DNA of 23,778 nucleotides, taken from assembly GCA_964366395.1 (NCBI GenBank), contig CAYITW010000004.1, positions 1 through 23,778 of the forward strand, read 5' to 3'. The translations under genes and the position numbers were made by a program. Position 1 is the first letter of the stretch. The number at the start of each line of letters is the position of its first letter. Below the pieces are notes generated by a model, which did not search any database, was not told the DNA's origin, and saw nothing but the letters and a program-made list of their open reading frames with translations. Of the stretch, positions 2,869 through 16,414 are shown piece by piece. Source of the stretch: an uncultured Candidatus Saccharibacteria bacterium. Its GTDB lineage: Bacteria > Patescibacteriota > Minisyncoccia > Phycocordibacterales > DATDWN01.

Positions 2869-2891
2869 CTATGTCTATTTGTACAAAGTAA

Positions 2892-5459
2892 CTAGACTCT
2901 TGCTGCGCCCACGCCAACGCGTGCGCGAGAGCCGAGAGCCTTCATTGCATCTTCAAGAGGTGTTCCCTTGAAAAGCTGTCCGAGAATGTCAACTGTGCTG
3001 ACACCACTCAGTGCTGCCATTGGTCCAAGTGCTGTAGAGATTCTCTCCACCAATGCGTTGTCGGAGAGAGTGGTCAATGCAACAGAGAGCTTGTCGTCAA
3101 TCGCACCTGCGCGCTTGACGATGTCCTCAGTTTCAGCAAGCATCCGTTTGATCTCGAGCTCGATTTCAAGTCTCTTTGTTTCGAGCTTCTGATCATCAGC
3201 GATTTTCCTTCGAGCAACGTCAGCAAGGTTCAACTCGTCACGAGTTGCCCCTTCGGCAACTTGGTCAGCGAGTTTCCTGCTGGCAACTCGAGCCTCAGCT
3301 TCGATTCGAGCCAGATTGGTAGCGAGAGTGAACTCGATACCTTCTTTCTCGATTTCAGCCAAAGCTTCAGTTGTTTCTGCTGTCGCAGTTGCCTTGTTGC
3401 GCTTGATTTCCTCGGAGCGAACGGTTAGTGCGAGCTCACGTTCTTCCTTGGAAATACGAAGTGCACCTTGCAATGCTTCAGTTTGAGCACCGACAAGGAG
3501 TGCGGCGACTGTGCTGTTGTTGATCTTGACGTCCAAGACCTCAACATCATAGACGCGCATTCCATTTTCGACCATGGTACGACCCGCTCGCTTGCTCTTC
3601 TCATCCTGAATTCCGAGAACAGCATCACGAATGATGTCGATTGCCTTGGCGTAGAAAACTTCCACACCATGGTGTTTTGCGGTGTTGCGAATCAGTGACC
3701 GCAAATGGTCAACAAGGAACCTAACGTAGTTCTCAACTGCGAACCACCTCTCGGGTTCATCACCCTCGAAGTTGACTCGATATGAGAGATTGATGTCCAA
3801 CTGAACAAGATCAAGTGTTTCCACTTTGACAACATCCGAGACCTTGTTGTTCTTCACTCGCAGATACGCGGTGCCGAGCAATTTGTCATCGGTTTTCGGG
3901 GTACCAGTGGACAGTTCCATCGGCATCAGGTTTTCGTCGTACTGCAGAAGGATCGTTGCCGGTCCCTGCACAACTCGACGAGCACCTGACTTACTGACAA
4001 CCAGAACAGCGTAGCCCGTCCACACATCAATCGCCACAGCTCCCTCATACTTCGTATCGAGAGTTACTGTGCGTGGAGGTGTAAACGTAGTCCCGCGAGT
4101 GAATGATTCCGAAACAAGATGTTCCGGACCTCTGCCTCTCGAGGTGTATGCTGCCGCATTTCGCAACGAAGCTTCCGTCTGGAGATACTCTCCAGCAGGA
4201 AGATCTTTGCTTTGTGCAAGAAGTTCCTGATTGACCTGAAGTGCACGCTGGTTTCCTGGATACCAAAGACCAACGGTCTTTAGATCAAGAATCCGACGAA
4301 TGATTACTTCCTTGCGCGGATCCGGAAGAAGCATGGTTGGTCCATTGACCAAACGTACTTCACCCTTGTTCCGATCGAGGATATAACGCCCTTCACCTGC
4401 AGGCACAGCAACAGCATAGTGAATCGTCTGATCCCCATACTTGATGATGCTGTGTTCCTCACGTGGAAAGTAAATCGCCTGATCCTTCCCAGTGATGAAG
4501 AGTTCGTCACCCACCTTATGGTGTGTGGCTTCCTCTCCTTCGCCTTCAGTGTAGTCAGCGATGACCTTCACGTAGATTCCGCTGTTTTCGTTCAATTCGA
4601 TTGCGCGGAACTTTCGGTTGTCACCCTTGCTTACAAATGTTTCCGTTGGTGCGGGAAACACGACGTCTGGTCCTTGCACGTAGCGCTTGTTGCCGTCTTC
4701 GTTAAGAAGAATGCAGTACTCAAGTCGCTCGAGCGTAACCGCTTCGCGAACGTACGTTTCTCCTTTTTCCGTCTGTTCCGGAATAACTTCCACGCCGGTA
4801 GGCGGAATAAAGAAAGCGACTTCAGTTCCCTCGATCACCATGAGTTGCCCCATGGTAAATTCGGTGGGAGCTGACGTTTTTGTAAGCTTTGCTGCTGTCG
4901 CAGGTTGAGTCTGTACGACTTCTGGAAGTTTCTGCTCTCCACCCTCTCCACCTGGATCAGATTTCAAACCAGTTGGCTGTTGTGGTTTCAGAACCGCCTT
5001 GCCCCAGTTTGCCCGTGCTTCTTCGTCGTTGTAGACGCGAACCACGAGATACTGGTTTGAACGAAGATGGTGACCCTCAATCACTTTCGCCGTTTGTCCC
5101 GGCCAAAGTGGAAAATGAGTCGGTCCAGGAATGTTGATCCTGCGACCCATCTTTAGAGACACCATTACACTCGACGAACCTTCACGAGGGTGCTCTTCCT
5201 TGGTTGCATCCACTGGATTCGTCAGGACAAGATAGAACCCCTCAGGCGCATTTGGGTATGCCTGTATTGCTTCAGAAGCATCACACCTTTGAAAACGACG
5301 CGCTGATGGATCCCATTTGACCGGTTGGTCGGTATCCGACATGCTCGTTTTGTTTGGACCGACATTGACATTGATATGTCCCTTTGTCGTATCCAGCACA
5401 AACGCGAACTCACCTGGAGCGAGAACTAAGTCTCGACCCCTTCCCATGCTATCCGCCAT
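2892..5459 (-). CDS. Major Vault Protein (MVP) homolog, full-length architecture: N-terminal MVP/vault repeats, shoulder (SPFH-like) domain, long A/E/R-rich cap-helix, cap-ring tail
   Basis: ORF track; ATG at 5457-5459 with AAGGGAG 4-5 nt upstream. N-terminus LVLAPGEFAFVLDTTKGHINVNVGPNKT matches the eukaryotic MVP repeat-1 motif ([28 protein letters not shown]). A later repeat, RYILDRNKGEVRLVNGPTMLLPDPRKEV, matches [25 protein letters not shown]. The shoulder region FAVENYVRFLVDHLRSLIRNTAKHHGVEVFYAKAIDIIRDAVLG ... VYDVEVLDVKINN matches the MVP shoulder. A roughly 130-aa coiled coil follows. Eukaryotic MVP sequences are recalled from memory. Confidence 0.85.
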   Translation of the reverse strand: MADSMGRGRDLVLAPGEFAFVLDTTKGHINVNVGPNKTSMSDTDQPVKWDPSARRFQRCDASEAIQAYPNAPEGFYLVLTNPVDATKEEHPREGSSSVMVSLKMGRRINIPGPTHFPLWPGQTAKVIEGHHLRSNQYLVVRVYNDEEARANWGKAVLKPQQPTGLKSDPGGEGGEQKLPEVVQTQPATAAKLTKTSAPTEFTMGQLMVIEGTEVAFFIPPTGVEVIPEQTEKGETYVREAVTLERLEYCILLNEDGNKRYVQGPDVVFPAPTETFVSKGDNRKFRAIELNENSGIYVKVIADYTEGEGEEATHHKVGDELFITGKDQAIYFPREEHSIIKYGDQTIHYAVAVPAGEGRYILDRNKGEVRLVNGPTMLLPDPRKEVIIRRILDLKTVGLWYPGNQRALQVNQELLAQSKDLPAGEYLQTEASLRNAAAYTSRGRGPEHLVSESFTRGTTFTPPRTVTLDTKYEGAVAIDVWTGYAVLVVSKSGARRVVQGPATILLQYDENLMPMELSTGTPKTDDKLLGTAYLRVKNNKVSDVVKVETLDLVQLDINLSYRVNFEGDEPERWFAVENYVRFLVDHLRSLIRNTAKHHGVEVFYAKAIDIIRDAVLGIQDEKSKRAGRTMVENGMRVYDVEVLDVKINNSTVAALLVGAQTEALQGALRISKEERELALTVRSEEIKRNKATATAETTEALAEIEKEGIEFTLATNLARIEAEARVASRKLADQVAEGATRDELNLADVARRKIADDQKLETKRLEIELEIKRMLAETEDIVKRAGAIDDKLSVALTTLSDNALVERISTALGPMAALSGVSTVDILGQLFKGTPLEDAMKALGSRARVGVGAARV

Positions 5460-5539
5460 TGATACTCCCTTCTAGTTGACTTACTTTGTTTTGAAAGAAC
5501 ACTCCAAACCAGAGAACTTCTCGGGTTTGGACACCCAGA

Positions 5540-5567
5540 ATACTAATCATTCTTGTCCTTTTGTCAA
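5540..5567 (-). promoter_or_regulatory. sigma70-like promoter for the MVP homolog (minus strand TTGACA-16 nt-TAGTAT)
   Basis: Perfect -35 hexamer (plus-strand tgtcaa at 5562-5567) with 16-nt spacer and a 4/6 -10 hexamer (plus atacta at 5540-5545). About 80 nt upstream of the MVP ATG. Read by eye. Confidence 0.45.
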
Positions 5568-5601
5568 ATATTTATTTGGCTGAAATTTCACTCAAATTTG
5601 T

Positions 5602-5633
5602 ATAAAAAACACCGTCTGGTTTTACCCAGACGG
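5602..5633 (-). terminator. rho-independent terminator ending the NfeD-flotillin-CA-like operon (minus strand CCGTCTGG-gtaaaa-CCAGACGG + TGTTTTTTAT)
   Basis: Perfect 8-bp GC-rich stem immediately followed by a T-tract on the minus strand. Located 33 nt downstream of the 5666 stop codon. Confidence 0.7.
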
Positions 5634-5665
5634 CGCGTTGTGCCGAGAACTTTAGAGCCTAGGCC

Positions 5666-6319
5666 CTAAAGTTTTTCGAACACAACTGATGTACGATTGG
5701 AGTCAGCGAACTTCGCGAAGTATTGCTCAATCACAAGGTGACGAGGAAACACTCCGAGAAGATGTTGCGCGACTGAAGCAAGATCAAGCCGTTGCCTGTC
5801 CACCATATTCTTCACCGCTGTGAAGAAAAATGGTGCAGCCTTTTGCAACAACTTGTACTTTCCACAATCCTCATGGTTGATCAGGATCACCCGATCAATC
5901 GATGAGAACTGATTGACGTAGTTGACGGCACCTTCCGTGACATACCTCGTTTCTTTTGGAAAGAAGTTGCCAACGGTGAATGATGCTGCACCTCCACGAA
6001 TAACGAACGGAAGGTACTGACCTTCCTTTACGCCGATTTCCCTTTCGAGAAACTGACGAATCGGACCTTGAAAGCGAGGATCTCCACAGAAGATTGCCAG
6101 TACACGAGGTGTGGCAGTTGCGGTTGTTTGGTAGGCTTTCGGCCCCCTTACTTCCACAACAGGTTCTGTTCTTCGAATTGGAATCTCGTCTTTTTCGATA
6201 ACTCCAGCACTGGCATCATCTTGCTCAACCGCTTGAACCGTAGGTCTGGGTGGTTGAGATGCTGCACTACTTGCGCCTGGTCGTGATCTTTTTTGATCCA
6301 TTCTGTTTTTTCCTTTCAT
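5666..6319 (-). CDS. beta-carbonic-anhydrase-like protein (CxDxR ... HxxCG zinc-site motifs) with disordered Pro/Ala/Ser-rich N-terminal extension; start more likely the ATG at 6301 (AAAGGAAAA upstream) than 6319
   Basis: ORF track. Motifs FCGDPRF (Cys-x-Asp-x-Arg), FVIRGG (compare beta-CA FVxRNAGN) and VILINHEDCG (compare beta-CA hhhGHxxCG). The spacing between them is about 70 residues. Last gene of the flotillin operon. The assignment is by motif only. Confidence 0.5.
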   Translation of the reverse strand: MKGKNRMDQKRSRPGASSAASQPPRPTVQAVEQDDASAGVIEKDEIPIRRTEPVVEVRGPKAYQTTATATPRVLAIFCGDPRFQGPIRQFLEREIGVKEGQYLPFVIRGGAASFTVGNFFPKETRYVTEGAVNYVNQFSSIDRVILINHEDCGKYKLLQKAAPFFFTAVKNMVDRQRLDLASVAQHLLGVFPRHLVIEQYFAKFADSNRTSVVFEKL

Positions 6320-6352
6320 GAGGGAGGATGGATTTTACTCCACCCTCCCTCA
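6319..6352. promoter_or_regulatory. intercistronic perfect 9-bp GC-rich inverted repeat (TGAGGGAGG ... CCTCCCTCA, 16-nt loop) between flotillin stop and CA-like gene start
   Basis: Read directly from the sequence. On the minus strand the SD-like GAGGGAGGG arm pairs with a CCUCCCUCA arm that abuts the first in-frame ATG (6319). There is no U-tract, so it is not a terminator. Confidence 0.4.
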
Positions 6353-6367
6353 CAAAAATCGGAAATA

Positions 6368-8011
6368 CTACGAACTCGCCCTCTCAGAGACAGCGTGCCC
6401 CACTGACGGTTTGTCACCGTCTGGTCCCACTCCACTCAGCAAACCTTCAAATCCACTGAGGTCAATGCCCAAGGTCTTTGCGATACCCTGAACATCGATT
6501 CCTTTCGCTTTGAGTTGAGCCAGCGTCTGAAACACGGTGTCGGTCACAAGACCAGACATCTTGTTCATACCCTTACCATCCCCACCCACATCCACGATAC
6601 GGATGGAGTCAATGTTGGCAAGACCAGCTGCGATGGGTCCAAACATTGAACCCAAGAGCTTCGAACCAGCATCTCCGCTCTTTTCGAGAAGAGTGGGCAT
6701 GCGGTCGAGGATGAGGATGAGCTTTGCCGCTGGAGACATTGTCGCCATGGCATCGTTGAGTGCTCGGGTACCCTCTGCTCGCGCAACGAGAACTTCTCGT
6801 TCGCTTGCAGCTTGACCCTTCGCCTGAGCAACGAGGTTGAGCTCGGTAGCTTTCGAGCTACCTTCACCCTCGAGAACAGCCGCGTTCCTTCTGGCTTCAG
6901 CCGTCGTGCGGAGAACTTCCGCTTGAGCTTCGGCATCAAGAATCATCGTCTGCTTGCTAGCTTCGGCGCGCAGAATTGAAGTCGCCTTATCAGCTGTTGC
7001 CTGAGCAATAACTGTCGCTTGCAATTCTGCTGTTCGACGAACACCTTCCTTGGTGGCAACCTCAACTCGTGCCTGCGTTGACGCAGCATCTCGGGCTGCC
7101 TGTGCAACCTGAAGTGTTTGCTCCTGTGCAGCAGTCGCGATCTGACCAGCCATGTTGGCTTCGGCTTGAGCTGTCGATGTTTCCCTCAAGAAATCCGCCT
7201 TTTTCAGGTCCCGATTCTTGCCAGCCTCAGCAACTTTTGCATCGTTGTCTGCTTCGACAAGTGCTGCTGCTGTCCGAGCGTTGGAAACACTGATGTCCTG
7301 GTTGCGCTTTGCTTCGGCGGTTTTCGTTTCCGCTTCAGCTTTAGCGTCCGCAACGGCACGTTTGCCGAGCGCATCGATGTAACCTTCGGCGTCGATGATG
7401 TCTTGGATGACCAAGTTCATCAACTCGATACCAAAGCTCGCAAGTTCGGCAGCGGATTCCTCCACAACCTTCTTGTTGAACTCGTCACGATTTCGGAGAA
7501 GCTCATTGATGTCGAGCTTACCGATAATCGAACGAAGGTGGCCCTTGAGAATGTTCCGAACAAACTCTTCAATGGGATTCGAATCGGTATTTCCCTTTTT
7601 GGGACCGTTGTCCAGAACAAGTTTGTCGACGAGAGCCTCGATAGCTTTTCCGAGATTCTCAGGGTTGGTTGAAATCTTGCAAGTTGCCACTCCAGGCACA
7701 GACAACTTGACGTTGTCTTTGTTTGGAATGTCCTTTTCATTGATTTCAACCTGAAAGGCAGTCGTCGGGATTTCAAGGTAACCTTCCACCAGCGGACGCT
7801 GAATGCGTCCGCCACCGGACATGACCATGAAACCCTTTTGATGACCGTCTTTGTCTTTGTACTTCATGCCGTAGAAGATACCAACCCTTCCAGGAGGAAT
7901 CTTCTTGTAGCGTGAGACAGCGACCTTCAGACCGTAGAGAAACGAAAGGGCAACGACCAAGATGAGAATGGGGATTACCCATCCAACGATAGTGCTGACG
8001 ATTCCTTCCAT
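6368..8011 (-). CDS. flotillin-family SPFH/band-7 protein (YqiK/FloT-like): N-terminal TM anchor, SPFH domain, long Ala/Glu-rich coiled coil, C-terminal flotillin tail
   Basis: ORF track. The listed start at 8017 is GTG. The ATG at 8009-8011 has AAGGAGAG 9 nt upstream. Sequence runs from VGWVIPILILVVALSFLY (TM) through an SPFH core to the EA-repeat region AKAEAETKTAEAKRN... Classic NfeD-flotillin gene order. Confidence 0.85.
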   Translation of the reverse strand: MEGIVSTIVGWVIPILILVVALSFLYGLKVAVSRYKKIPPGRVGIFYGMKYKDKDGHQKGFMVMSGGGRIQRPLVEGYLEIPTTAFQVEINEKDIPNKDNVKLSVPGVATCKISTNPENLGKAIEALVDKLVLDNGPKKGNTDSNPIEEFVRNILKGHLRSIIGKLDINELLRNRDEFNKKVVEESAAELASFGIELMNLVIQDIIDAEGYIDALGKRAVADAKAEAETKTAEAKRNQDISVSNARTAAALVEADNDAKVAEAGKNRDLKKADFLRETSTAQAEANMAGQIATAAQEQTLQVAQAARDAASTQARVEVATKEGVRRTAELQATVIAQATADKATSILRAEASKQTMILDAEAQAEVLRTTAEARRNAAVLEGEGSSKATELNLVAQAKGQAASEREVLVARAEGTRALNDAMATMSPAAKLILILDRMPTLLEKSGDAGSKLLGSMFGPIAAGLANIDSIRIVDVGGDGKGMNKMSGLVTDTVFQTLAQLKAKGIDVQGIAKTLGIDLSGFEGLLSGVGPDGDKPSVGHAVSERASS

Positions 8012-8053
8012 GTGCACACTCTCCTTTTTTTCTGCTTCTTGTTTTAGTTTGAC

Positions 8054-8584
8054 TTACTGTTTGACTTCGACGATGACTTCACTTCCGTTTGTTCGAACTA
8101 TCGTAACTCCACTACCTTTTGGAATTGTAGTTCCATTGGTAGAACGTGCAAGATAGGTACGAACCTGGCCGGCAAGCATGACATCCACACTGCCAACCGA
8201 GGTATTACCGATTTCCACTGTGACAAATCCATTTTTCCCAATGGTTTGGTCAGTGCTAACGAGCGAGTTTGATTGTTGGCTGTATAGCACTCGCAGAATT
8301 GCCAACATGAAAAATCCGAGTAAAGAGCCTGCCACAAGACCGATGAGAGAGGATGCAATCCACCCATAACCGTTCCATGAAGCAATAGCCCCAGCTGCAC
8401 CAAATGCCATGATGAATGAACCAATGACCTTGAGCGAAAAAATGCTCACTGTCGGTTCACCATGAGTGACATCGTGGTCATGATCGTGGTCAAAGTGTGC
8501 ATCATGATCGTGGTCGTGACCAAAAAGGGCACCACCAACAAGCACGACGAAACCTAGAAACACAAGCGCTAGAAAGATAAGCAT
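8054..8584 (-). CDS. NfeD-like membrane protein (short NfeD/YuaF type: TM helices plus C-terminal OB-fold beta domain) carrying an (HD)n His-Asp repeat loop
   Basis: ORF track; ATG at 8582-8584 with AAGGAGA upstream. Three hydrophobic segments, then a C-terminal GFVTVEIGNTSVGSVDVMLAGQVRTYLARS...VIVEV beta-rich domain typical of NfeD. HDHDHDAHFDHDHDHD lies between TM1 and TM2. Positioned immediately upstream of the flotillin gene, as in yuaF-floT. Confidence 0.75.
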   Translation of the reverse strand: MLIFLALVFLGFVVLVGGALFGHDHDHDAHFDHDHDHDVTHGEPTVSIFSLKVIGSFIMAFGAAGAIASWNGYGWIASSLIGLVAGSLLGFFMLAILRVLYSQQSNSLVSTDQTIGKNGFVTVEIGNTSVGSVDVMLAGQVRTYLARSTNGTTIPKGSGVTIVRTNGSEVIVEVKQ

Positions 8585-8705
8585 CGACTTTCGTCTCCTT
8601 TTCCTTTTGTCTACGAGATTGTTATCGAAACTGCTATTAAGCTTGTCGATTTGTTCTTTGTATTAACTCCAATATTACATTTACAAAGAACTAAAACTGT
8701 CGCCA

Positions 8706-8734
8706 ACATTAAACTAAATATTTACTTTTGTCAA
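8706..8734 (-). promoter_or_regulatory. sigma70-like promoter of the NfeD-flotillin-CA-like operon (minus strand TTGACA-17 nt-TAATGT)
   Basis: Plus-strand tgtcaa at 8729-8734 and acatta at 8706-8711 with a 17-nt spacer. About 120 nt upstream of the NfeD ATG in an AT-rich intergenic region. Confidence 0.45.
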
Positions 8735-8865
8735 GGCTTTATTAGTGCCTAAAATAGTGTTGTTATAAGCCATAGTTTTGGGTTTAAAAATTAAACTAAA
8801 TTAATCAATTTTTATATAAAAAAGAAAACTCGCAACCACTTTGGTTACAAGTTTTTGAGAACAAA

Positions 8866-9081
8866 CTACCCTGGTTCTGCAAACGGGATGAAATTCTCCG
8901 CTCGAGTTCGCAACGGTCGTCCAGAGAAACGCCTCTGAATACGTCTGCCTCCCTTAGTTGGTTCGCATTCGTTGCCTTCGCGGTTTTTGTGAAGCTTGAG
9001 TAAACCCTTGGCGTCTACCTCAACCGCTAGCACACAGGTTGGACACAAACCGACAAGAATGGATTCATCAGATTTTCTCAT
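8866..9081 (-). CDS. hypothetical small Cys-containing basic protein (71 aa)
   Basis: ORF track. GAGAGGTG ribosome-binding site 5-6 nt before the ATG. GC content is like the surrounding island. CPTC...C with an Arg-rich C-terminal half. No family recognised. Confidence 0.35.
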   Translation of the reverse strand: MRKSDESILVGLCPTCVLAVEVDAKGLLKLHKNREGNECEPTKGGRRIQRRFSGRPLRTRAENFIPFAEPG

Positions 9082-9136
9082 TTCACACCTCTCTGTTTAG
9101 ATATTATGTAAATAATCTTTTTAAGTCAATCTGGTT

Positions 9137-9174
9137 TTATAAAAAAGAGGACGGCACAAATGTGCACCGCCCTC
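9137..9174 (-). terminator. rho-independent terminator after the LysM-protein gene (minus strand GAGGGCGGTGCAC-a-TTTGTGCCGTCCTC + TTTTTTAT)
   Basis: Imperfect GC-rich hairpin followed by a T-tract on the minus strand, 20 nt after the 9196 stop. Confidence 0.5.
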
Positions 9175-9195
9175 GCCAATTTTTACTTTCTGCCC

Positions 9196-10572
9196 TTACT
9201 TCTTCTTACCGAACATAGTCCGAAGGTCAAGTTTGACCGTTGGACCACATGAGGTTGGACTGGATTTTGAATTGTGTTCGTTTACGCATTCATAACCCAA
9301 CTTAAGGTTGAGAACTCCGCTCTGCCAAGGGTAAGCAAAGCTTAATCCTGTTCCAAATGTGTTGCGGTTATTCCAAGGGTAACCCTTGGAATCTGCGCTC
9401 GTCACGATCCATCCAGTTGGACTGACAAGAACTTTCCTGATTTGCATCATGGTAAGTCCTTGTTCCAAATGAATGGCGCCAATGAGATTCCCTCGTTCGT
9501 AGGGTGAAATGTATCCAGCATTCCACTCCACAAAACCAGGGGCTGTGAAGGTCCCGCTTTCAGACGAAGGGGTTTTCTGTTGCCAGAAAAACTGTCCAGT
9601 ACTGAAAGCCACTACGCCGAGTTTACTTTTCCCGAAACCCTTACTCCCCAAGCCTTCACGACGGCTCTCGAGAGCAACTGCTCCAGCGAACTCTATTTCG
9701 CCATGGGTGAAGGATTTGACGAATTTCAAACCCGTCTCAATTTCCACCCTATTATTCTGTGGTCGCCCTTTAGCGTCCTGCATGGCATTTAATGCCGTGT
9801 AATACAGAACCTCTCCCCCTCTAAATCGAGAGGCGACAATCCCTGCATCAACGTGAAAGGTGTCGATTTTGTTTCCATTGTCTTTTGGAGTGATGTCGTA
9901 AAAATTCCAAAAGTTTCCACGAGTTTGGAATTTCCGCTCTTCACTTGTGGTCAATGGCAGATTCTGTGGTACTACTGCAGGCAGAGGCTTAGACTCTTCC
10001 ACAAATCGTGGCGTTGGTGTGGACACTGGTGCTTCCTGCACAACAGACGTTTCAGCCGTCTTCGGGCGAAATGTCACAGTTCCTCCTAACCTTGCTGGAG
10101 GAGTAGCATGCACAATTAGAACTTCTGGTTCTTCTTGTGTCAGCATCTTCTCCGTCGAAGGAATCTTTTTGGTTGCAGTTTTCTTTCCTGTTCGTGCAAC
10201 TTTTGATTCCTTCACTAAAACAGTGGACAGATTGCAAAGAGTCATCGGAATCCGCAGTACCTGACCCACGTGAATCACGTACGGAGACTTGATGTCGTTG
10301 ACTTCAGCAATCAACTGGTAGAGGTAACCTCTGCCACCATATTCGTGCTCGGCAATTCTCCAAAGAGAGTTACCGCGAATTACGACGTAGGTCCTGTCAA
10401 TGCAGGCAGGTACCTCAATAACTTTGGATGTGGGTCCAACAACCGGTGTTGGCACAGCTACCACTTGACTCGGAACTGGGATGGGTTTTCCAGACGGCAA
10501 CCAATAGTGACCGATAGCTACACCCACCACAATACCAACAAGAAGCGTGACTAGGTTAAACAACTTCAGCAT
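9196..10572 (-). CDS. LysM domain protein with N-terminal signal-anchor, Pro/Thr-rich linker and a ~250-aa beta-rich (possibly barrel-like) C-terminal domain
   Basis: ORF track. AAAGGGGAG ribosome-binding site. LysM signature YVVIRGNSLWRIAEHEYGG...YQLIAEVNDIKSPYVIHVGQVLRIP. The C-terminal domain shows alternating hydrophobic beta-strand patterning and is not assigned to a family. Confidence 0.8.
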   Translation of the reverse strand: MLKLFNLVTLLVGIVVGVAIGHYWLPSGKPIPVPSQVVAVPTPVVGPTSKVIEVPACIDRTYVVIRGNSLWRIAEHEYGGRGYLYQLIAEVNDIKSPYVIHVGQVLRIPMTLCNLSTVLVKESKVARTGKKTATKKIPSTEKMLTQEEPEVLIVHATPPARLGGTVTFRPKTAETSVVQEAPVSTPTPRFVEESKPLPAVVPQNLPLTTSEERKFQTRGNFWNFYDITPKDNGNKIDTFHVDAGIVASRFRGGEVLYYTALNAMQDAKGRPQNNRVEIETGLKFVKSFTHGEIEFAGAVALESRREGLGSKGFGKSKLGVVAFSTGQFFWQQKTPSSESGTFTAPGFVEWNAGYISPYERGNLIGAIHLEQGLTMMQIRKVLVSPTGWIVTSADSKGYPWNNRNTFGTGLSFAYPWQSGVLNLKLGYECVNEHNSKSSPTSCGPTVKLDLRTMFGKKK

Positions 10573-16333: not shown

Positions 16334-16406
16334 GGGCCCTTAGCTTAGTTGGTAGAGCGCCTCATTTGCAATGAGGAGGTCACCAGTTCGAATCTGGTAG
16401 GGTCCA
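16334..16406 (+). tRNA. tRNA-Ala (anticodon UGC), 73 nt, CCA not encoded
   Basis: Cloverleaf folded by hand. Acceptor GGGCCCT/AGGGTCC with the G3:U70 Ala identity pair. D-arm GCTT-AGTTGGTA-GAGC. Anticodon stem CCTCA/TGAGG with loop TTTGCAA. T-arm ACCAG-TTCGAAT-CTGGT. Discriminator A. Confidence 0.9.
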
Positions 16407-16414
16407 CAGACGAC

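Follow-up and report, generated by a model that had tools for sequence, protein, structure and literature searches.

A contig of 23,778 nt from an uncultured Candidatus Saccharibacteria bacterium (CAYITW010000004.1; this whole stretch of DNA is referred to as the window) carries, on its reverse strand, an open reading frame (ORF) whose product is probably a cytoplasmic zinc-binding protein of the beta-carbonic-anhydrase (beta-CA) superfamily. We read this protein as a member of a divergent clade related to the Pfam family Pro_CA_2, as the product of the conserved third and last gene of an NfeD-FloT operon, and as a partner of flotillin and NfeD, and we assign this reading a probability of roughly 0.6. 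An earlier reading of the sequence (referred to as the original prediction) had proposed a beta-CA-like zinc-site protein at this position. What is new here is the flotillin-linked clade of an uncharacterised beta-CA branch, and a beta-CA-like flotillin partner was not described in the literature searched (i.e., on PF20393/Pro_CA_2, on flotillin plus carbonic anhydrase, on gene neighbourhoods, and on the bacterial major vault protein, MVP).

Fold, zinc-site motifs and family

The ORF and the parts of its product that bear on the assignment are the following (residues are numbered from the first Met of the ORF as reported):

5666–6319, reverse strand: beta-CA-like ORF as reported (217 aa; the range includes the stop codon)
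5669–6142, reverse strand: predicted beta-CA-fold core, residues 60–217 (five strands, i.e., three alpha-beta units followed by beta4 and beta5)
6074–6088, reverse strand: C78-G-D80-P-R82 motif with the first putative zinc-ligand Cys and the Asp-Arg dyad (from conservation, n = 54; aligned to C42/D44/R46 of Can and, via Pro_CA_2, to CMDAR of Rv1284)
5864–5875, reverse strand: H149-E-D-C152 motif with the second and third putative zinc ligands (from conservation, n = 54; aligned to H98/C101 of Can and, via Pro_CA_2, to HHTDCG of Rv1284)

In the AlphaFold2 model, the core was predicted with a pLDDT (predicted local distance difference test) of 83–97, and the top 50 Foldseek matches were all beta-CAs (best E-value 2.5e-6, probability 1.0). 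Moreover, C78 ends strand 1, H149 ends strand 3, and C152 lies in the turn just before helix H153–161 of the model, which we take to be the beta-CA arrangement as in 1I6O and 1G5C. By this model, the protein has the beta-CA-superfamily fold, as the original prediction had anticipated.

The motifs on which that prediction had relied, i.e., FCGDPRF (C78–R82), FVIRGG (residues 105–110), and VILINHEDCG (residues 144–153), are all present in the ORF. In an alignment of 54 sequences, C78, F90, G109, H149, and C152 were invariant, while D80, P81, R82, D151, and Y155 were at least 90% conserved. The proposal of a beta-CA-like protein with a Cys/His/Cys plus Asp-Arg set was thus borne out by conservation, motif register, profile-profile match, and fold search alike; among the quoted signatures, only R108 of FVIRGG fell short, not being conserved in the family (vs. 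the invariant G109 next to it). The Gly following the second Cys (G153, in HxxCG) is kept in the window protein and its close homologues. The spacing between the motifs, which had been called class-typical, is not: 71 residues separate Cys from His in the window protein, compared to 56 in Escherichia coli Can and 58 in minimal Pro_CA_2 proteins, the distance having been stretched by a clade-specific insertion. Three clade-conserved insertions are missing from the minimal Pro_CA_2 proteins, namely the LPKE loop (residues 116–125), the PFFF segment (residues 161–173), and residues 205–210.

When searched by itself, the window protein scored 16.4 bits against Pfam Pro_CA (PF00484; E 0.011, residues 115–175 only; gathering threshold 25.7 bits) and 13.6 bits against Pro_CA_2 (PF20393; E 0.077; gathering threshold 30 bits), reaching neither threshold. 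Neither the window protein alone nor a profile of its close family yielded anything useful against the PDB sequences, and a broader clade profile gave insignificant matches there, though nearly all of them were beta-CAs. A set of 5.8 billion proteins yielded 9 homologues, and searching 1.84 billion representatives with a profile gave 495 clusters at E ≤ 1e-3 (163 at E ≤ 1e-10). All 10 close homologues matched Pro_CA_2 below threshold (best E 8.3e-5), three related long-form proteins (P0041, P0058, P0071) reached about 23–29 bits and likewise stayed under the cut-off, and P0098, a relative with a long N-terminal domain, passed the 30-bit threshold with 33.8 bits. Relatives of about 120 aa from Anaerolineales and other metagenome-assembled genomes (MAGs) are bona fide Pro_CA_2 proteins, a status that was checked on four members of this comparison set (48–58 bits vs. 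the cut-off of 30), and they also touch Pro_CA (24 bits).

At the level of profiles, HHalign aligned the clade with the bona fide Pro_CA_2 alignment at a probability of 99.8% (E 2.3e-29, 121 aligned columns), and the Pro_CA_2 profile in turn matched solved beta-CAs (Rv1284, E 2.1e-6; COS (carbonyl sulfide) hydrolase, E 1.3e-4; Cab, E 2.8e-3), with CxDxR falling on CMDAR and HEDCG on HHTDCG of Rv1284. Alignment of the clade profile with the single E. coli Can sequence gave a low probability (6.5%, and 5% for Pro_CA_2) that is informative for motif register only; in this register, C78/D80/R82/H149/C152 fall on C42/D44/R46/H98/C101 of Can. Since all 10 close homologues match Pro_CA_2, the profile-profile probability is 99.8%, and fold searches give only beta-CAs at the top, the match exceeds chance. 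The single sequence thus stayed below the Pfam thresholds, and the homology to Pro_CA_2 emerged at the family level, with solved beta-CAs being reached via Pro_CA_2. Altogether, the protein belongs to the beta-CA superfamily as a divergent relative of Pro_CA_2 that scores below threshold, and it is not a demonstrated carbonic anhydrase.

Operon position and linkage to flotillin

Four genes lie on the same strand in the order NfeD-like, flotillin, CA-like ORF, and MVP-like, together with the following elements:

8054–8584, reverse strand: NfeD-like first gene (176 aa; Pfam NfeD E 3.7e-4, below cut-off)
6368–8017, reverse strand: FloT-type flotillin, second gene (549 aa; Pfam Band_7 2.4e-27; NCBIfam FloT 2e-56, below the equivalog cut-off)
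6318–6353, reverse strand: intercistronic RNA hairpin (15-bp stem, 6-nt loop; purine-rich 5′ arm resembling a Shine-Dalgarno (SD) sequence, CCUCC-like 3′ arm; AUG of Met1 in the stem)
5600–5636, reverse strand: intrinsic-terminator-like hairpin and T-run closing the NfeD-flotillin-CA-like operon (hairpin at 5636–5609, 11 pairs of which 7 are G-C, followed by TTTTTATA)
5540–5567, reverse strand: sigma-70-like promoter before the MVP-like gene (TTGACA, 16 nt, TAGTAT; 10 of 12 consensus positions, a consensus match only)
2892–5459, reverse strand: MVP-like protein (855 aa; Pfam MVP_shoulder 6e-27, Vault_3 2e-9, weak Vault repeat)

The first two genes have the composition of an NfeD2-SPFH2 operon, i.e., a FloT/YqiK-type flotillin after a small same-strand membrane protein of the NfeD type, and the NfeD-like protein, with three predicted transmembrane (TM) segments, carries its NfeD domain at the C-terminus and a His/Asp-rich loop (GHDHDHDAHFDHDHDHDVTHGE) behind TM1. 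The CA-like ORF starts 48 nt past the flotillin stop codon (or 66 nt when counting from Met7, see below), and this gap contains a hairpin without a U-tract and no terminator, the terminator following only after the CA-like gene. Since that terminator lies behind the ORF and a promoter-like site precedes the MVP-like gene, the CA-like gene is the last of the NfeD-flotillin unit, which agrees with the third position that had been proposed for it (same strand, no terminator in between, terminator at 5636–5609). A terminator of a similar kind was also found 3′ of the orthologue in locus L104. The CA-like protein and flotillin would accordingly be made from the same mRNA, and, with neither a signal peptide nor a TM segment read from its sequence, the CA-like protein is likely cytoplasmic.

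To place this arrangement among other genomes, context look-ups and tblastn searches with the NfeD, flotillin, and MVP proteins of the window were used. In 13 distinct loci, the CA-like gene is immediately preceded by a flotillin gene of the same orientation; besides the window, these are L001/L008 (an Acidobacteriota MAG), L009 (Phycisphaerales), L010 (Planctomycetota), L002/L003, L004-6/L089, L091, L092, L096/97, L098, L100, L103, and L104, and they come from Acidobacteriota, Planctomycetota, and unassigned metagenomes. Across the linked loci, the CA-like proteins are 30–72% identical to that of the window and the flotillin homologues 31–73%. An NfeD-type gene is present 5′ of flotillin wherever the contig is long enough, and tblastn found NfeD homologues upstream of flotillin in 10 related loci (L001, L002, L009, L010, L091, L092, L096, L098, L100, and L103). 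The frames of the flotillin and CA-like genes overlap by 14 nt in L001 and by 17 nt in L100, and in L098 a gap of 9 nt separates them. In a neighbour-joining tree, 12 of the 13 flotillin-linked sequences group in one clade, in which every member of known context is flotillin-linked except for the subgroup of P0052 (P0052 itself sits after another Pro_CA_2 paralogue), while P0081 falls outside this clade and yet is linked.

Synteny across 13 distinct loci speaks strongly for a functional link between the CA-like protein and flotillin. The earlier suggestion of a cargo or partner of a flotillin/MVP assembly therefore survives in its flotillin half and fails in its MVP half, there being no related locus with an MVP homologue and the MVP-like gene of the window lying behind a terminator with a promoter-like site of its own. 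Likewise, the statement that a beta-CA-like gene is not a normal component of NfeD-flotillin operons holds for the literature searched, whereas for this clade flotillin linkage is the rule.

Flotillin is absent within 8 kb of the 120-aa Pro_CA_2 genes. These minimal genes (L013-L087, from Anaerolineales and other MAGs) occur as tandem pairs in 28 loci, 3′ of a hydantoinase/dihydropyrimidinase-like amidohydrolase gene in 49, and 5′ of a SulP/STAS anion transporter gene in 18, a context that may largely reflect the close kinship of the sampled genomes. SulP transporters reportedly are known companions of carbonic anhydrases (Felce and Saier 2004), and their linkage to the wider family fits an inorganic-carbon role. 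A sister group from Patescibacteria (ca. 150–160 aa; L011 7968–8432, L012 6251–6709, and L093 3238–3729) has comEC on one side and two glycosyltransferase-like genes in divergent orientation on the other, and lacks a flotillin neighbour. Its L011 member has CPDPK, and its L093 member is without the His and second Cys (GNQDNG); therefore part of the Patescibacteria group, at least, cannot bind zinc in the beta-CA way. Finally, P0124, a giant protein (4421 aa) among the representatives searched, showed 10 separate matches to positions 42–81 of the family profile, which may be a repeat artefact.

The start codon of the CA-like gene is probably not the one reported. Since the AUG of Met1 sits inside the 3′ arm of a very stable and conserved hairpin, Met7 (ATG at 6301–6299) comes with an AAAGGA SD sequence, and Met7 is also the start of the identical database protein P0001 (211 aa), translation probably starts at Met7 (6301) to yield a product of 211 aa. 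The hairpin region has a folding energy of –37.6 kcal/mol (z –7.5), with the true SD sequence and AUG coming after it. A hairpin occurs at the same position in L002 (4956–4991), L103 (about 1866–1898), and L104 (about 1082–1115), and these three loci and the window share 14 consensus pairs, 6 of which have compensatory double changes; a hairpin of a similar kind was found in L092 (within 6895–6965). An Rfam scan matched this hairpin to no known family. It may set the flotillin to CA-like expression ratio, through either mRNA stability or translation.

Proposed mechanism and competing explanations

As we picture it, the CA-like protein would be a dedicated partner or client that works where flotillin and NfeD assemble at the membrane. 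Zinc would be bound through C78, H149, and C152, with D80 and R82 positioning a zinc-bound water, and the protein would probably hydrate CO2 or a related small heterocumulene (COS/CS2-type chemistry) near the membrane. Docking would more likely proceed via the clade-conserved insertions (residues 116–125, 161–173, and 205–210), with the N-terminal region as a variable tether, and the conserved intercistronic hairpin would probably set the expression ratio of flotillin to CA-like protein.

Several observations weigh against this reading. The window protein stays under the gathering threshold of both Pfam carbonic-anhydrase models. Canonical beta-CAs conserve the Gly that follows the second Cys, but many clade members have K/A/Q/R/S there (e.g., HEDCKKY, HQDCRYY, HEDCAKY), and the active-site Gln of plant-type enzymes is Ala or Thr here. 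Motifs are degenerate in some relatives (CYAPN in P0016, CPDPK in L011/P0052, GNQDNG in L093), and parts of the family may therefore be non-catalytic. Relatives at 32% identity or less are partly not flotillin-linked (L011, L012, L093, L106), and the flotillin association, including any physical tie, derives from gene order only. Neither biochemical data for any Pro_CA_2 protein nor a paper naming PF20393 was found in the literature searched.

The main rival is that the protein is a non-catalytic zinc-binding adaptor or pseudo-enzyme, in which fold and metal site have been kept for structure or sensing (of CO2/bicarbonate, redox, or zinc status) and which regulates or decorates the flotillin-NfeD assembly. 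The missing conservation of the Gly after the second Cys and of the active-site Gln speaks for such an adaptor, as do the degenerate motifs and the conserved His/Asp-rich loop of the partner NfeD, which could bind metal. This loop spans residues 22–43 of NfeD (8458–8523, reverse strand). Of nine NfeD sequences from triads with a CA-like gene that were read over their whole length, eight have a similar loop (that of L092 being N-terminally incomplete), while E. coli YqiJ has a weak version only; it is possibly a metal-binding loop beside the putative zinc protein. Nevertheless, the Asp-Arg dyad is kept in at least 90% of the 54 sequences alongside the invariant Cys/His/Cys, and we know of no structural-only role for this dyad in beta-CAs. 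Moreover, the degenerate members fall outside the flotillin-linked core. We therefore regard an adaptor without activity as improbable, although it is the alternative to be taken most seriously; targeting through the tail or MVP cargo, and chance adjacency, are disfavoured.

A bolder version of the partner reading is tentative, and we would sooner doubt than accept it: NfeD, FloT, and the beta-CA-like protein might constitute an undescribed, horizontally mobile three-component module, in which a zinc hydratase, organised or enclosed by a flotillin cage, handles CO2/bicarbonate/protons locally at a patch of membrane, with the hairpin tuning expression and the His/Asp-rich loop of NfeD taking part in metal handling.

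The original prediction had also compared the N-terminal extension to cargo-targeting peptides:

6143–6319, reverse strand: N-terminal extension, residues 1–59 (polar, Pro/Ala/Ser/Gln-rich, with a basic extreme N-terminus; predicted disordered; not conserved)

The disorder claimed for this extension was recovered in the prediction, while its length of some 70 aa shrinks to about 55–60 residues (pLDDT < 50 for residues 1–47, with the fold beginning near residue 60). If the enzyme were cargo, loaded by this tail into a flotillin or MVP cage in the manner of encapsulin or bacterial microcompartment (BMC) targeting peptides, a conserved short terminal peptide would be the hallmark of such a system, and none was found. 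SPFH proteins and MVP do form cages, and disordered Pro/Ala-rich tails with a basic tip precede the core in 18 of the 54 relatives (at least 30 residues), including the flotillin-linked P0021 and P0028. However, no motif is common to the tails, which resist alignment even where the cores are 72–76% identical, and in 31 of the 54 relatives, the flotillin-linked L001, L004, L009, and L010 included, at most 15 residues precede the core. A conserved targeting-peptide role for the tail was rejected on these grounds. Furthermore, no MVP homologue was found by tblastn in any of the more than 100 fetched related loci, a terminator and promoter set the MVP-like gene apart, and Pfam scans of the window ORFs revealed neither an encapsulin (HK97-fold) nor a BMC-H/T/P shell gene, making tail-loaded cargo a decidedly unlikely explanation.

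What the extensions do have in common is variability. Long tails are polar and Pro-rich and often end in a Lys/Arg-rich tip, while two relatives have a hydrophobic, TM-like N-terminus instead. Large, helical-looking N-terminal domains of 160–280 aa occur in P0081, P0098, and P0134 (424–444 aa) and in P0058, P0079, and P0094 (313–332 aa), of which P0081 is flotillin-linked; these extra domains had no Pfam match. P0139 (523 aa) has a Cys-rich C-terminal region. Depending on the relative, the N-terminal region is thus absent, disordered, a TM-like anchor, or an extra domain of 160–280 aa, and would serve as a variable tether or spacer.

Least likely of all, an ordinary cytoplasmic carbonic anhydrase could have landed by chance behind flotillin in a horizontally transferred island, since the NfeD, flotillin, CA-like, and MVP block (GC content 0.47–0.52 vs. 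0.36–0.40 in the flanks) could have moved as a unit, but gene order and orientation are unchanged across 13 distinct loci, which belong to different phyla, reach down to 30% identity, have flanks that are otherwise unrelated, and often show overlapping frames; this makes a functionally unrelated neighbour very improbable.

Neighbouring genes and comparison with known systems

The MVP-like gene has its own terminator at 2870–2839 and is probably an adjacent but separate transcription unit. As a component of the flotillin module, MVP was ruled out, given the missing homologues in related loci and the terminator and promoter-like site in between. Bacterial MVP homologues were already known (bioRxiv 10.1101/872010), and the adjacency of a flotillin operon and MVP, two SPFH-related cage formers, was seen in this window only.

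The genes for MVP, the CA-like protein, flotillin, NfeD, and a LysM protein form a compositional island at about 2890–10570 of the window, with a GC content of 0.47–0.52 (0.41–0.54 at third codon positions, GC3), compared to 0.36–0.41 (GC3 0.27–0.35) in the flanking housekeeping genes, which suggests horizontal acquisition of the block by a host of low GC content. A 71-aa ORF with several Cys (8866–9081, reverse strand) is situated 5′ of the NfeD gene, between terminator-like hairpins at 8825–8855 and 9147–9174. The sole RNA gene found in the window is a tRNA-Ala (TGC) at 16334–16407 on the forward strand. The rest of the window is housekeeping in nature (uvrA, a short uvrC, ddl, two acyltransferases, a SurA-like gene, and yceG), and also includes a Flavodoxin_2/FMN-reductase-type protein and a PAS histidine kinase with response regulator.

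Bacterial flotillins are regarded as scaffolds of membrane microdomains, and SPFH proteins have been seen to form cages in recent structures, while the specific clients of flotillins are mostly defined indirectly. A soluble enzyme-like protein hard-wired into a flotillin operon in several phyla is a concrete and genetically tractable candidate client, and also places the uncharacterised Pro_CA_2 branch of beta-CAs in a functional context for the first time. Should the protein be an active hydratase, flotillin assemblies would be linked to the way in which CO2/bicarbonate or pH is handled locally at the membrane; without activity, it would represent a new SPFH-cage adaptor of the pseudo-enzyme type.

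Among known proteins, the closest relatives are those of Pro_CA_2 (PF20393, annotated as "putative carbonic anhydrase"; ca. 120-aa proteins in Anaerolineales MAGs, L013-L087), with which the window clade shares the CxDxR and (L)INHEDCG motifs and the order of strands and helices. In contrast to them, the window clade stays under the Pfam cut-off, has three conserved insertions and often an N-terminal extension, and is linked to flotillin, whereas the 120-aa proteins are encoded beside an amidohydrolase, a tandem paralogue, and a SulP transporter, with no flotillin within 8 kb. With the canonical beta-CAs (PF00484; Methanobacterium thermoautotrophicum Cab, 1G5C; Mycobacterium tuberculosis Rv1284, 1YLK; E. 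coli Can, 1I6O), the window protein has the Cys-His-Cys and Asp-Arg residues in register, while it differs by an identity of only 10–19%, a score under the Pfam threshold, a Cys-to-His distance of 71 instead of 56 residues, and the non-conserved HxxCG Gly and active-site Gln. Encapsulin and BMC cargo likewise consists of an enzyme-like protein encoded beside a cage former, sometimes with a disordered terminal extension, yet here a conserved targeting motif is missing, linkage is possible without the extension, and shell genes of the HK97-fold or BMC kind are absent from the window.

With regard to the operon, SPFH2 flotillins are encoded together with NfeD-type yuaF/yqiJ, and a third gene, the GNAT gene yuaI, has been reported in Bacillus subtilis only (Hinderhofer et al. 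2009, PMC2636767), E. coli yqiJ-yqiK having no third gene. In both B. subtilis yuaF-floT-yuaI and E. coli yqiJ-yqiK, as in the operon of the window, the gene of a FloT/YqiK-type flotillin comes after that of a small membrane protein of the NfeD type. That conserved adjacency to flotillin can define a specific protein family has a precedent in the flotillin-associated rhodopsin (FArhodopsin; PMC10308929), which is reportedly a membrane rhodopsin of SAR11 and related marine bacteria, compared to the soluble zinc-enzyme fold predicted here. The B. subtilis operon shares with that of the window a third, enzyme-encoding gene as well, which specifies a GNAT acetyltransferase there and a predicted beta-CA-fold protein that recurs across phyla here.

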